From an uncultured Fibrobacterota bacterium (lineage in GTDB: Bacteria > Fibrobacterota > Chitinivibrionia > Chitinivibrionales > FEN-1185), in the NCBI GenBank assembly GCA_963753345.1, contig CAVWBU010000021.1, positions 128,001 to 192,000 on the forward strand: DNA of 64,000 nucleotides, given 5' to 3'. Below the pieces are notes generated by a model, which did no database searches, had not been told where the DNA came from, and saw only the letters and a program-made list of their open reading frames with translations. Made by a program: the position numbers and the translations under genes. This document shows positions 7,434 to 62,582 of the stretch, one piece after another. Positions within the stretch are counted from its first letter, which is position 1; the number at the start of each line of letters is the position of its first letter.

Positions 7434-7611
7434 GGCGGAGCGCAAAAGCCGCTCTTTGGTTTCGATTATGTATATTATTCAGCGGCCTTGGTTCACAGCG
7501 CCCTTTCGGTTGAAGCGTGTAGATTCAAGACATGAGAACAATTGACAAGTACCGTTGACTCCTGACAATCTACATTCTACAATTTTGAAAAACGATAGGA
7601 CACATTGTTTC

Positions 7612-8920: not shown

Positions 8921-9243
8921 TTGGGCGTTCCCCCCTGAAGAGCCGCACTGCCGAGCGGCTCTTCAGGGGGGTCGGTTCCACCCCTCCGGGTGCTTCGAGG
9001 CGTCGTCCTTCCGGTCCACCCCTTCGGGTGCTTCTCCCTCGTCAGGGATTTCCAAGGGTCACAAGGGTCGTCGGCCTTCGGCCTCGGGCCATCTAATTGC
9101 AGAATGTAGATTGTAGAATGTAGATTTGAAATGCGAAGACCAACCGGAATGTTTTTTCAATCTACAATCATCAATCTAAAATCTACAATTAAGAGTCCGG
9201 GCGGCATCCCGCTTTGGCGGGACCTCCAGTCGCCCCTAACGCG
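8921..9243 (+). repeat. Repeat family B, copy 2 (expanded by an internal heptamer hairpin)
   Basis: TTGGGCGTTCCCC...GGGTCGG...CCTCCAGTCGCCCCTAACGCG, with GTAGATT/AATCTAC arrays at 9096-9190. Confidence 0.85.
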
Positions 9244-9397
9244 AAAGTCAAAAAACGGAAAACTGACAAAAGGTAATTAAAAATTGGGAACAGGGTGTGG
9301 ATGGATTTATTTTGATCAGTAAGGCAATGCTTTAGTAAAAACCGCTCGCGCCTGGCGTTTGAAGATGGATGCTTATCATATCAAATAGGATCCGTTC

Positions 9398-19560: not shown

Positions 19561-19694
19561 GGGTTCATCCCTTGCAGCGCAACACAAGACTCACCACAGA
19601 GTCACAGAGAACACACAGAGAAATGCCAGGAGAGCCAGAAGTTGATTGTCCTACCGTCAACGGACAACCGTCAACTGTCAACAACGATTCTTTA

Positions 19695-20050: not shown

Positions 20051-21775
20051 TTACAGCACCGTTCCGTCGAAAATGTCAAGCACCGTTCCTATGATGGGCT
20101 CGCGGCCTATTTCGTCCTTTATCGAAAGCGACGTTCCCGCCGCCGCCGAAGGTGCCGGCGAGGTCTGCGCGGCCGGTGTGTCGGCCGGCTCAATGGTGAT
20201 GTGCAGTGCGACGTCGGTCTTGACGAATTCGCCGAGTTTCTTCTGAATCTCGTCGCGATTCTTCTTCTTTGTCACCTCGCCGAACTGGAAACGGCATGCC
20301 GCCGGGAACCGCAGCTCTATGGAATTTGCGGTCGACGAAACAATATACGCGACCGACAGGTGATAGCCGAACGCGGGCCAGTCGTGCACCAATTGTTCCA
20401 TGAACCGCGGCCACCGATCCTGCAGGTTTCCTTCGACCGGCGGCGCGGCAGGGGAGACCGCCTCTTCGCCCATGTCGATGTTCGCCTCGCCATTGTCGGG
20501 CGCCGCGTCGGTCTCAAGCACCGGCTCGGCCAGGGTCAGGCCGGGTTGTGAAATTTTTTTTTTATCCGGTACCATGGTGCCCGGCGCCGCAACCGCTGGA
20601 GCCGCCGAAGGCGGCGATGACTGCGGCGCGGCGGCCTGTGGCGCGCCGCCGAGCGATTCCAGAAGCGTTGACAGCGCAACCGTGTCGTCGAGGTGGACAA
20701 GCTTAAGGAGCAGAAGCTCCACAAGGAACCGCGGGAAGTCGGAGAACCGCAGGTCGCGCTCGGTCTTCCGCACGAGCTCGGCCATGCGCAGGAGCGTCTC
20801 CTCGGAAAACGCCGATGCGCGCTTTGCAAATGCGCCGGCCGCGTCGGCGGGAAGGTCGATGCGCGGGTTGTTCATCACGCCGGGCAGGCGGCAGAACAAA
20901 AGCGTCCGCAAATGGTCTTCGAGCCCCATCACGAACTCGCGCAGGTCGAACCCGCGCGACAGCAGGTCTTCCACTGCGGCGACGGCGGGGGAAGGGTTCT
21001 TTTCCGCAACGGCCTTCATGATGGTGTCGTACAGCTCCGTGTCGATGATGCCGAGCACGGTGCGGACCGCGGCCTCATTAATTGACTCATGCGAATACGA
21101 ATACACCTGGTCGAGCAGGCTTAAAGCGTCGCGCATGCTGCCTTCGGCCTTGCGTGCGACAATCGCGAGCGCGGCCTTGTCGAACGCGATGTTCTCGGAC
21201 GTGCAGATGTGCGCGAGCCGCGCGGTAATCTGCTCGGCCGATATCCGCCTGAAATCGAAGCGCTGGCAGCGCGAATGGATGGTGGCCGGTATTTTCTGCG
21301 GCTCGGTGGTGGCGAAGATGAAGATCACGTTTTCGGGCGGTTCTTCGAGCGTCTTGAGCAGGGCGTTGAACGCCGACTTGGACAGCATGTGCACTTCGTC
21401 GATCACGTAAATGCGGTGCTTGCCGCCCATCGACGAATACCTTACGTTCTCGCGGATCTCGCGGATGTCGTCCACCGAGTTGTTCGAGGCGCCGTCTATT
21501 TCCAGCACGTCGAAGCTTGACCCGTTGATGATGTTCTTGCACGGTTCGCATTCGCCGCAGGGCTTGGGCGTGGGGCCCTTGTCGCAGTTGAGCGCGCGCG
21601 CCAGGATGCGGGCCGTGGTGGTTTTGCCCACGCCGCGCGTGCCCGTAAAAATATAGGCATGCGCCACGCGGTTCTTCTCGATGGCCTTGATAAGCGTCTG
21701 CGTGATGTGCTCCTGGCCCACCACGTCGGCGAAACTTTGAGGACGCCATTTGCGGGCAAAAACCAAGTAACTCAT
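20051..21775 (-). CDS. dnaX: DNA polymerase III subunit gamma/tau
   Basis: ARKWRPQ, GTRGVGKTT, DEVHMLS, SRCQ. Confidence 0.96.
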   Translation of the reverse strand: MSYLVFARKWRPQSFADVVGQEHITQTLIKAIEKNRVAHAYIFTGTRGVGKTTTARILARALNCDKGPTPKPCGECEPCKNIINGSSFDVLEIDGASNNSVDDIREIRENVRYSSMGGKHRIYVIDEVHMLSKSAFNALLKTLEEPPENVIFIFATTEPQKIPATIHSRCQRFDFRRISAEQITARLAHICTSENIAFDKAALAIVARKAEGSMRDALSLLDQVYSYSHESINEAAVRTVLGIIDTELYDTIMKAVAEKNPSPAVAAVEDLLSRGFDLREFVMGLEDHLRTLLFCRLPGVMNNPRIDLPADAAGAFAKRASAFSEETLLRMAELVRKTERDLRFSDFPRFLVELLLLKLVHLDDTVALSTLLESLGGAPQAAAPQSSPPSAAPAVAAPGTMVPDKKKISQPGLTLAEPVLETDAAPDNGEANIDMGEEAVSPAAPPVEGNLQDRWPRFMEQLVHDWPAFGYHLSVAYIVSSTANSIELRFPAACRFQFGEVTKKKNRDEIQKKLGEFVKTDVALHITIEPADTPAAQTSPAPSAAAGTSLSIKDEIGREPIIGTVLDIFDGTVL

Positions 21776-21895
21776 AATAATTTTAGATTTTAGAATGTAG
21801 ATTGACGATTTAGAATACAGTACATCAGGCGTTCATCCTCGAATTGGAATACAGATTCCTTGTCCAACAAAAATAGATTATTCCCCATATATATT

Positions 21896-22303
21896 TCATT
21901 GCCCAATATGCTGGGAAGGATTTCTGGGTTTTGATTGTTTCCTGACTGTATTTATTGATGATACAATAATAGCGAGAATTTGATTCGCCTCATCGGCCAG
22001 TTGCATTACCCTGTTTTGCGGCAGAAAATTTCCTTCGGCAAGCAATTCCATCCAATAGGCAGACTCATCAGCCTCTTCTTCCACAATCTTCAATTTTGCA
22101 ATAAAATCCGCTCTTGATCTTGCTCTGCAAACCGCTCTGTAATTGGCACCAACGGAAGTCCCACTACGAAGCAATTGACGGCCCAATACCTGCGCGGACG
22201 GGTTCCGGGGCAATTCGCTGAACAACCTTATGATCTCAAGCGCAAAGGTCTTGGTGCGCAGTTTCATGGCTTCGGGAGTATACGCCACAGCAAGGTCTTC
22301 CAT
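21896..22303 (-). CDS. Four-helix-bundle protein (TIGR02436 / 23S-IVS-protein type)
   Basis: QLLRSGTSVGANY, SRADFIAKLKIVEEEADESAYW. Confidence 0.9.
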   Translation of the reverse strand: MEDLAVAYTPEAMKLRTKTFALEIIRLFSELPRNPSAQVLGRQLLRSGTSVGANYRAVCRARSRADFIAKLKIVEEEADESAYWMELLAEGNFLPQNRVMQLADEANQILAIIVSSINTVRKQSKPRNPSQHIGQ

Positions 22304-22380
22304 TAAAAAGGGAATGAACGATAAGTAACTGGACTTTATAAATCTACAATCTACAATCTTCAATCTACAATGGTAAAAGC

Positions 22381-22480
22381 GGGGCCAAGTTTACCTGCGG
22401 CACACTCAGTATCCGTTTACCGTTGCTCCCTTCCGGGCCTGGCGGGGTTCACAGACTGTCGTTGCGCAGGGCCTGGCCCC
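22381..22480 (-). ncRNA. ffs: Signal recognition particle RNA (4.5S)
   Basis: GGGGCCA...GAACCCCGCCAGGCCCGGAAGGGAGCAACGG...TGGCCCC: helix-8 GGAA tetraloop motif and closing stem, in the usual position upstream of dnaX. Confidence 0.92.
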
Positions 22481-22601
22481 ACAGTTAATTGTAGAATGTA
22501 AATTGTAGATTGTAGATTGAAATTCCGGAGACCTCGTTTCCCGGCGATGCGAAGCGTGCAAAAAATAGCATTTGCGCCGGGCCGAGCAAACGGTTGATTG
22601 C

Positions 22602-36653: not shown

Positions 36654-36752
36654 AGGAATTGTAGATTGCAGAATGTAGAATGTAGAATAAACAAACCATC
36701 AAACGTCCTTTCTGTTCTCTTTCAATCCCCAATCCGCATTCCGAAATGTCAT

Positions 36753-41177: not shown

Positions 41178-41303
41178 GTCGCGGAGCCCGGAAATATGAG
41201 AGGAATTGTATATTCTAGACTGTAGATTGCGGATTGAAAACCGTCCACGTTCTTCGCATTTGTCTTACAATCTCAAAACCATTGTGGCAATGTTCTTCTG
41301 CCC

Positions 41304-47040: not shown

Positions 47041-47150
47041 AAAGAAATGTAGATTGCAGATTGTGGAATGTAGATTGAAAAACTTTCCGACGGGGCCGTC
47101 GGAACGATACTTTGACAAAATGTGATTCCGATATGAAAAGGAGACAGTAC

Positions 47151-62439: not shown

Positions 62440-62582
<143 letters not shown>

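Follow-up and report, generated by a model that had tools for sequence, protein, structure and literature searches.

In the 64,000-nucleotide stretch of DNA analysed here (the window; positions 128,001 to 192,000 of contig CAVWBU010000021.1, GenBank assembly GCA_963753345.1, from an uncultured Fibrobacterota bacterium of the order Chitinivibrionales), the signal recognition particle (SRP) RNA gene ffs and the clamp-loader gene dnaX are separated by a gene for a four-helix-bundle (4HB) protein of the PF05635 family, which is bracketed by inverted arrays of tandem heptamers. A third array lies on the other side of ffs. What is new here, judged from sequence comparison, is the link of this subfamily of 4HB cassettes to the SRP RNA. 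With it, PF05635 is associated with the transcription units of stable RNAs not only at 23S rRNA but also at the tRNA-Ser-ffs operon, and the fidelity of a 4HB subfamily to ffs in three families of the order points to a function more strongly than one insertion would. The explanation that we favour, with about evenly balanced confidence, is that a conserved tRNA-Ser(GGA)-ffs-dnaX unit has been colonised by hairpin cassettes of the intervening sequence (IVS) type, the transcripts of which would be processed. In such a cassette a 5' arm, (ATTGNNG)n, and a complementary 3' arm, (CNNCAAT)n, would enclose a loop, which may or may not hold a PF05635 gene.

The window's own genome is denoted G000 (an assembly of 4.5 Mb with 56% G+C), and the window lies on its contig C21; other G and L numbers denote genomes and loci of relatives. 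The original prediction, made from the window sequence alone, had placed three arrays, ffs, the 4HB gene and the dnaX ATG, and all of its coordinates are correct. In the direction of transcription the features are:

22602, minus strand: end of a hybrid histidine-kinase gene, the upstream neighbour of the TATTTTTTG motif
22559 to 22567, minus strand: promoter-like TATTTTTTG of the TAnnTTT(G) type, upstream of array 1, the putative ffs promoter
22487 to 22524, minus strand: array 1, CTACAAT-type heptamers (TCAATCTACAATCTACAATTTACATTCTACAAT), in the probable ffs 5' leader and read as an orphan 3' arm
22380 to 22478, minus strand: ffs, small bacterial SRP RNA (Rfam RF00169)
22341 to 22371, minus strand: array 2, ATTGTAG-type heptamers (ATTGTAGATTGAAGATTGTAGATTGTAGATT), putative 5' arm of the 4HB cassette
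21896 to 22303, minus strand: 4HB gene (PF05635) of the ffs-linked subfamily, 135 aa from the ATG at 22303
21780 to 21816, minus strand: array 3, CTACAAT/CTAAAAT-type heptamers, putative 3' arm of the cassette
20051 to 21775, minus strand: dnaX (clamp-loader tau/gamma; Pfam DNA_pol3_delta2, E 1e-47), then ybaB (YbaB, E 4.2e-34) and recR

The ffs gene matches RF00169 with 61.5 bits (gathering score 40; E 4.1e-11) and is 100% identical to its counterpart in G001 and 99% identical to that in G002. Repeat comparison bears out the prediction that arrays 1 and 2 form a 31-nt inverted repeat with three mismatches around ffs: the arms are 90% complementary, have 116 nt between them and leave gaps of 8 and 9 nt to the ends of ffs, array 2 starting 8 nt 3' of the gene. 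The predicted complementarity of arrays 2 and 3 around the PF05635 gene is likewise present, over 36 nt at 81% (21815-21780 on the side of array 3). The dnaX ATG at 21775 lies 4 nt past the end of array 3, and a CAAT-type array also adjoins the dnaX ATG in G001, G002, G013, G029 and L142, which with G000 makes six lineages.

Whether other 4HB paralogues carry flanking inverted heptamer arrays, a check proposed along with the original prediction, can be answered positively for the genome and for most of the order. A profile search of the genome gave five PF05635 matches over the cut-off and one weak, longer match. Inverted arrays flank all five true paralogues, and the word differs from one to the next: ATTGTAG/CTACAAT in the window, AGTTGAG/CTCAACT on contig C31, TGTTGGA/CAACT at a pseudogene on C28, AATGACT/GTCATTA on C40 and GACAATG/CATTGTC on C41. 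A strict period-7 detector (at least 17 of 21 matches) missed many degenerate arms at the loci of the order and was replaced by a word-independent flank score with controls, defined as the best ungapped complementary match between 170-nt flanks; by this score the five paralogues all fall in the top 1.2% of 595 control genes. For the survey of the order, one best PF05635 locus was taken from each of 30 genomes, of which 26 were scorable and four lay too near contig ends. The 95th percentile of the controls, 10.5, is exceeded at 19 of the 26 loci but at only 3 of 107 shifted controls, and a score of at least 15 is reached at 11 of the 26 and at none of the 107. The polarity of the cassettes is a trend only: among the 19 (L109-L136) the upstream arm is G-rich in 13 and C-rich in 5, and the downstream arm is the opposite.

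Within this class, the window gene belongs to a subfamily that lies beside ffs in most of the genomes in which it was found. Its product is 50-59% identical to those of the ffs-linked genes of G001, G029 and the metagenome locus L142; to the remaining paralogues in G000 the identity is only 10-34%. A search of 81 genomes of the order with the window protein, using a subfamily threshold of at least 49% identity (the range was 49-60%), gave loci in G000, G001, G075, G016 (contig C6), G043, G070, G029 and G038. The locus lies beside ffs in seven of these eight genomes, and the exception, G016:C6, has two in-frame TAA codons. In the relatives ffs is followed by dnaX at 25 of 27 loci, often as tRNA-Ser-ffs-dnaX. 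The order is tRNA-Ser(GGA), 5' arm, 4HB gene, 3' arm, ffs and dnaX in G029, G038, G075, G070 and G043 (families f4 and f5), and ffs, 4HB gene and dnaX in G000, G001 and L142 (family f1). A 3' remnant of a 4HB gene persists downstream of ffs in G002, and in G016 a 4HB gene of a different subfamily stands upstream of tRNA-Ser-ffs, where the tRNA is bracketed by inverted TCTTTGA/TCAAAGA arrays. The repeated occurrence of cassettes at tRNA-Ser-ffs-dnaX therefore marks this unit as a preferred, long-term home of such elements.

The window open reading frame (ORF) matches PF05635 at E 8.7e-17 with 61.7 bits (cut-off 33.8) over profile positions 9-105 of 106, and by sequence match its product resembles PDB 2rld_A (E 1.3e-19, residues 13-121), an "uncharacterized protein" of 121 aa with five chains. 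The family motif is given as GxxRxxxSxxxNxxE (PMC3936711; this and the other articles identified by PMC number are cited from parts of their text). In the window protein the corresponding LLRSGTSVGANYRA keeps the R-x3-S-x3-N spacing and has A in place of the final E, as have the ffs-linked members of G001, G029 and L142. PF05635 proteins are very numerous. Their genes are known inside 23S IVSs and inside cas loci (PMC3936711), and the function of the proteins is described as not established (PMC10053308, PMC4990558). They have been likened to Avd of the diversity-generating retroelements, which belongs to the same four-helix-bundle superfamily and is homologous to PF05635 (PMC10053308). In contrast to Avd, the window gene sits in a stable-RNA operon, and no reverse transcriptase, template repeat or variable repeat was seen beside it in the ORF list of the window.

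The arrays of the locus are members of a genome-wide repeat family and are not unique to it. A scan of the genome for the A[TA]TG-N3 class found 87 arrays against one in a reversed-sequence control, so their number is far beyond chance, and 81 of the 87 lie outside gene calls, the calls used for array context being crude (76% coding). Forty-four of them are paired into 22 hairpins, in each of which an ATTG-arm comes first, then a loop of 12-77 nt and then a CAAT-arm. Only two pairs within 400 nt have the reverse arrangement, CAAT...ATTG: the arrays around ffs, which are well separated, and an array complex at C41:279945-279990 next to a 4HB paralogue, in which the arrays overlap. By approximate assignment, 22 of the 41 lone arrays are closest to a gene 3' end, in the ATTG sense. 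A census of four ATTGTAG units (up to six mismatches) is blind to the arrays beside the other paralogues, and Tandem Repeats Finder reports 241 period-7 arrays of at least three copies in several word families (AACTGTC, 53; AAAGTTG, 40; AATCTAC, 23, with AATGTAG, 17; AGGCCGG, 20; and others). Arrays of the ATTGTAG/CTACAAT word come within 9 nt of stable RNAs, at -1 to 5 nt from tRNA-Gln/Glu, tRNA-Ser and tmRNA and at 8-9 nt from ffs. A single heptamer hairpin fills the tRNA-Gln/tRNA-Glu spacer (C7:2947-3053), and a CAAT array precedes the tmRNA at C24:155579.

Array 1 is best read, from its sequence context, as the orphan 3' arm of a second, upstream cassette or hairpin, and the three-array layout would then exist because two same-word hairpin cassettes stood next to each other and one decayed. 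In G075, G070, G038, G043 and G029 the 3' arm of a 4HB cassette occupies the position of array 1 before ffs. The tRNA-Ser(GGA) gene of G000 lies at C21:241319-241406, about 91 kb from ffs on the same contig, and is followed by a lone ATTGTAG array (G000:C21:241279-241321) with the standard ends of a 5' arm, TTAATTGTAG...GATTGA; the tRNA-Ser(GGA) of G001 likewise has a lone TTAATTGTAG...GATTGA array at its 3' end. The duplex predicted between the G000 tRNA-Ser array and array 1 (-32.6 kcal/mol) is nearly equal to that between arrays 1 and 2 (-36.0 kcal/mol). We infer that a rearrangement split an ancestral tRNA-Ser-hairpin-ffs unit. It would have left the 5' arm on the distant tRNA-Ser(GGA) and array 1 as the surviving 3' arm of an element that once filled the tRNA-Ser-ffs spacer, and ffs would have gained a promoter upstream of array 1.

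The position of that promoter is suggested by a TAnnTTT motif, which occurs within 60 nt upstream of 23 of 52 tRNA/tmRNA genes but in only 3.4% of random 60-mers. The stable-RNA promoters of G000 presumably resemble the Bacteroidota type (TAnnTTTG) and not TTGACA/TATAAT. The sole TAnnTTT in 22470-22600 is TATTTTTTG. Because this motif, conserved with its flank in G001 and G002, stands upstream of array 1, and in G002, which lacks array 1, is close to ffs (ending 23 nt before its GGGG start), array 1 is most likely part of an ffs 5' leader of about 70 nt. On the 3' side of ffs there are 5-8 T in G002, G003 and G029, but just the weak tract CUUUUA (four U) in G000 and no run of U in G001, which fits read-through into array 2. 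The ffs leader of G029 (L010 1310-1500) contains about 3.5 tandem copies of a 49-nt unit of CAATCCG/CAATCGA heptamers, a higher-order repeat of the 3' arm.

The predicted pairings are strong. The duplex of arrays 2 and 3 in G000 has an energy of -25.8 kcal/mol, and shuffled sequences (200 for each duplex) average about -10.5 to -11.1 kcal/mol with best values of -19.7 to -19.9 kcal/mol. The fold of 21760-22550 (minus strand) has a minimum free energy (MFE) of -233.6 kcal/mol (z -2.9), and in both MFE and centroid folds array 1 pairs with array 2, enclosing the SRP hairpin, with no pairing between arrays 2 and 3. The layout with three arrays is found again in G001 (CCGCAAT/ATTGCGG), L142 (CTGCAAT/ATTGCAG), G013 (without an ORF) and G029. 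By duplex energy the alternative pairings are thermodynamically stable in G000, G001, G013 and G029, and that of arrays 2 and 3 is stronger than that of arrays 1 and 2 in G001 (-56.2 versus -43.9 kcal/mol) and G029 (-45.5 versus -29.4 kcal/mol).

Comparison of G000 with G001 indicates how the words of the arrays change together. Identity is about 95% as far as the promoter and once more from dnaX codon 6 on, and it is 100% in ffs. In two blocks the genomes differ throughout: the leader with array 1, and the stretch that begins with array 2 and includes the first five dnaX codons, which differ only synonymously. This pattern reads as an allelic block replacement. Arrays 1, 2 and 3 share one word within each of three alleles (TAG in G000, CGG in G001, CAG in L142), whereas the tRNA-Ser arm of G001 keeps the TAG word. 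Cognate duplexes of arrays 1 and 2 in G000 and G001 exceed the cross-genome combinations (-22.6 and -26.0 kcal/mol) by 14-21 kcal/mol. The concordance, which rests on three alleles, hints that pairing has been maintained by selection or gene conversion. At the ffs locus the word is also the one that prevails genome-wide, windows with the TAG and CGG patterns numbering 146 and 59 in G000, 68 and 94 in G001, and 0 and 91 in G029.

We propose that the spacer between ffs and dnaX holds an intact cassette with arrays 2 and 3 as its arms, and that the subfamily to which its 4HB gene belongs has been kept beside ffs across at least three families of the order. Arrays 1 and 2 would lie in one primary transcript and, since they also share a word, would pair into a duplex of about 31 bp around the SRP RNA hairpin. 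Array duplexes would be substrates of RNase III, and their cleavage may detach the SRP RNA both from its leader and from the 4HB-dnaX RNA that follows. That array 1 and array 3 compete for array 2 would be a by-product of neighbouring same-word hairpins and not a dedicated switch. The original prediction of an IVS-like, RNase III-processed cassette stands as regards the bracketing of the PF05635 gene by arrays 2 and 3, which is shared with its paralogues and with most loci of the order; the processing is plausible by analogy. The genome encodes an RNase III (C37:11805-12194). The 23S IVS of Coxiella burnetii, with its ORF S23p, is excised by RNase III (PMC4990558), and in the scRNA precursor of Bacillus subtilis RNase III cuts both sides of a stem (PMC1935012).

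Several observations weigh against this proposal. Flank complementarity around ffs is high at four of 26 scorable relatives' loci (23.5, 18, 15.5 and 11.5) and at most 10 at the rest; the match score was used here because GC-rich tRNA flanks score high in duplex energies, which makes the energies of 90-nt ffs flanks not comparable across loci. The other 22 loci have no bracket, so SRP RNA can mature without it. In most relatives the arrangement is tRNA-Ser-ffs-dnaX or promoter-ffs-dnaX with no arrays, and G075 and G070 have an arm on the 5' side of ffs only. The 4HB gene decays, as seen in the 3' remnant of G002, the two in-frame TAA codons of G016:C6 and the match in two pieces in G038. The low-scoring loci L112, L113 and L129 of the order survey have direct, not inverted, flank repeats, and the counts that describe the genome-wide grammar of the arrays are approximate because the gene calls are crude. 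That the RNA is processed, that array 2 is transcribed together with ffs and that the 4HB gene is expressed are all predictions. A cassette that seldom moves and is inherited vertically could, with no function at all, account for much of its linkage to ffs, and our proposal gives no account of why the 4HB ORF is downstream of ffs in this genus and upstream elsewhere.

It is tenable, if somewhat unlikely, that the arrays are neutral relics, selfish or slippage-prone spacer repeats whose bracketing of ffs and alternative pairings are accidental and have no role for the SRP RNA, the ORF or dnaX. The sheer number of A[TA]TG-N3 and other period-7 arrays, half of the former in hairpin pairs, would fit such an origin, as would the lack of the ffs bracket in most relatives, the lost, truncated or broken cassettes, and the precedent of the Coxiella IVS, a selfish element with a decaying ORF (PMC4990558). 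It is harder to reconcile with array 1 tracking the word of arrays 2 and 3 in three alleles while the G001 tRNA-Ser arm stays TAG, with the energetic advantage of cognate duplexes, with one protein subfamily beside ffs across three families and on both of its sides, and with a 4HB ORF that is intact in seven of the nine loci at no less than 49% identity (the eight genomes and L142). The original prediction had gone further and proposed a structural switch, in which array 2 toggles between array 1 and array 3 and couples SRP RNA maturation, occlusion of the dnaX start and 4HB expression. The stability of both duplexes in four genomes, the stronger pairing of arrays 2 and 3 in G001 and G029 and the adjacency of array 3 to the dnaX ATG in six lineages speak for it; however, any two neighbouring same-word hairpins would yield two such alternative duplexes. 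Beyond these we found no support for the switch and consider it very unlikely: the G000 folds contain the pairing of arrays 1 and 2 only, no conserved element was found besides the repeats themselves, and the layout is absent from most relatives with the same ffs-dnaX junction, the bracket occurring in 4 of 26. In addition, G075 and G070 have the cassette without an array beside dnaX, and arrays right before start codons are general here (window 36720-36747) and in other bacteria (PMC4679880).

An improbable alternative is that the arrays are cis sites, in RNA or DNA, of their own 4HB protein, each paralogue reading its word, the ORF-less arrays forming a regulon and the ffs-linked protein acting on precursors of SRP RNA, tRNA and tmRNA. 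Each paralogue does have its own word, the ffs-linked subfamily goes with ATTGNNG/CNNCAAT words in G000, G001, G029, L142, G075 and G038, the ffs-locus word follows the genome-wide majority in G000, G001 and G029, and same-word arrays abut tRNA-Gln/Glu, tRNA-Ser, tmRNA and ffs. Yet the large families AACTGTC (53), AAAGTTG (40) and AGGCCGG (20) have no intact cognate gene in G000; G043 and G070 combine the same protein subfamily with another word (AGATTTT/GAGATTT), and TAG and CGG words are mixed within single arrays. A reading without RNA pairing, in which CTACAAT arrays are sigma-70-type promoters (TCTACA-N17-TACAAT), array 1 for ffs and array 3 for dnaX, is extremely unlikely, and we rejected it as the main reading because TAnnTTT precedes the stable RNAs and the conserved motif lies upstream of array 1. 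A consensus scan does report nine sites where 1.6 are expected, among them a TCTACA-17-TACAAT in array 1 that stops 7 nt short of the GGGG with which ffs begins, and comparable ones in array 3. The stable-RNA genes of this genome, though, are preceded by TAnnTTT and not by TTGACA/TATAAT, the motif upstream of array 1 is conserved in G001 and G002, the CCGCAAT arrays of G001 occupy the same place without the A2/T6 pattern of a -10 element, and the same arrays are also found in inverted orientation immediately behind stop codons and the 3' ends of tRNAs.

More ambitious, and decidedly improbable, is the idea that 4HB proteins and array arms form a stable-RNA precursor module, the ffs subfamily of which would have stayed next to the SRP RNA gene from before the families of the order split. 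The protein would bind the arrays, as duplexes or as single strands, and decide which stem forms and is cut (arrays 1 and 2, arrays 2 and 3, or the tRNA-Ser arm in trans), and would thereby govern how SRP RNA and tRNA-Ser are released and how dnaX is translated, with ORF-less arrays at tRNAs and tmRNA as further targets. If true, this would be the first function for the PF05635 family and for bacterial heptamer repeats, which to our knowledge have been unexplained for decades. The locus joins the two beside a short, abundant and easily mapped RNA, and nature provides the variants: the bracket in G000, G001, L142, G013 and G029, one arm in G075 and G070, and none in G003 and G004. Even without any processing, the locus clearly illustrates how hairpins of one word recombine and leave orphan arms behind.

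Returning to the colonisation of the tRNA-Ser-ffs-dnaX unit by cassettes, the element, as far as its sequence goes, is a variant of the ORF-bearing IVS kind that resides in the spacers of this unit instead of in rRNA. Leptospira, too, has an ORF-bearing 23S IVS. Like the IVS of Coxiella, the element has a PF05635-family ORF inside inverted repeats that would form a long stem, sits inside a stable-RNA transcription unit, and exhibits a patchy distribution and ORF decay (PMC4990558). Unlike it, the ffs cassettes lie in spacers beside the SRP RNA (ffs-dnaX here, tRNA-Ser-ffs in relatives) and not in an rRNA helix; no rRNA match was found in the window, and its cassette is between ffs and dnaX, not in 23S helix 25 or 45. 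Moreover, the arms are tandem heptamer arrays and not unique inverted repeats, ORF-less copies of the same hairpin are dispersed in the genome, and excision, which is by RNase III in Coxiella, is here only suggested by analogy. The scRNA precursor of B. subtilis likewise has 5' and 3' extensions of an SRP RNA on opposite sides of a stem (PMC1935012), which corresponds to the predicted duplex here. Its stem is a unique sequence that RNase III cuts. The predicted stem here comes from a genome-wide repeat family, which brackets ffs in 4 of the 26 relatives that could be scored, and its cleavage would follow by analogy.

Intergenic heptamer repeats comparable to these arrays are the cyanobacterial STRR repeats. 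The TAACTGA direct repeats of Beggiatoaceae, cyanobacteria and Bacteroidetes are also tandem 7-nt words that are nearly all intergenic, often end one to a few nucleotides before a start codon in fixed orientation, and occur as several word families in one genome (PMC4679880). They differ from the arrays described here in word (CTACAAT, CTAAAAT and CCGCAAT, none of them TAACTGA), and in that the present arrays are mostly inverted pairs tied to PF05635 genes. The part of that article available gives no link to PF05635, with no occurrence of "23S", "four helix" or "intervening" (PMC4679880). In the literature covered, which did not extend to subscription journals, neither a PF05635 gene bracketed by heptamer arrays outside rRNA nor arrays around ffs were described.

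The window also contains further arrays of the same word class: a heterologous hairpin at 36655-36747, with an ATTGTAG arm directly after a stop codon and a CAATCCG arm directly before the next ATG, and lone arrays between genes at 7565-7583, 41202-41240 and 47044-47082. Start codons, including those of dnaX in G003 and G004, have no Shine-Dalgarno sequence. Window arrays of other words are ACCGTCA in the ybaB-recR spacer (19653-19682) and AAAGTTG at 62472-62506, which belong to the genome families AACCGTC (11 arrays) and AAAGTTG (40 arrays). The 18 ORF-less hairpins of G000 first listed all have the ATTG-arm first, on either strand. That such hairpins are deletion derivatives of the 4HB cassette is unsupported, because in sequences compared by eye their loop GAAATGCGAAGACCAACC was not seen in the inner flanks of the cassette. 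The tRNA-Gln/heptamer hairpin/tRNA-Glu unit appears on two contigs with near-identical flanks (C7:2873-3133 and the ends of C26, 1-250 and 292392-end); these are likely to be a single locus that was assembled twice at the ends of contigs.

An abundant GC-rich modular repeat, about 200 nt long by eye, has the form tgggcgttcccc ... ggccttcggcctcgggcc [central hairpin] gtccgggcggcatcccgc ... taacgcgcggc. The window copy, at 9000-9290 with its hairpin at 9096-9189, matches no Rfam family; others are found, for example, at G000:C21:156541 and C6:14492, and the right-flank motif has 77 matches genome-wide. The central hairpin is swappable, being mostly GC-rich and sometimes of the "tctctacaaaagg" type, and in about 7 of the 40 copies read it is an ATTGTAG/CTACAAT hairpin with the common loop (GAAATGCGAAGACCAACC).

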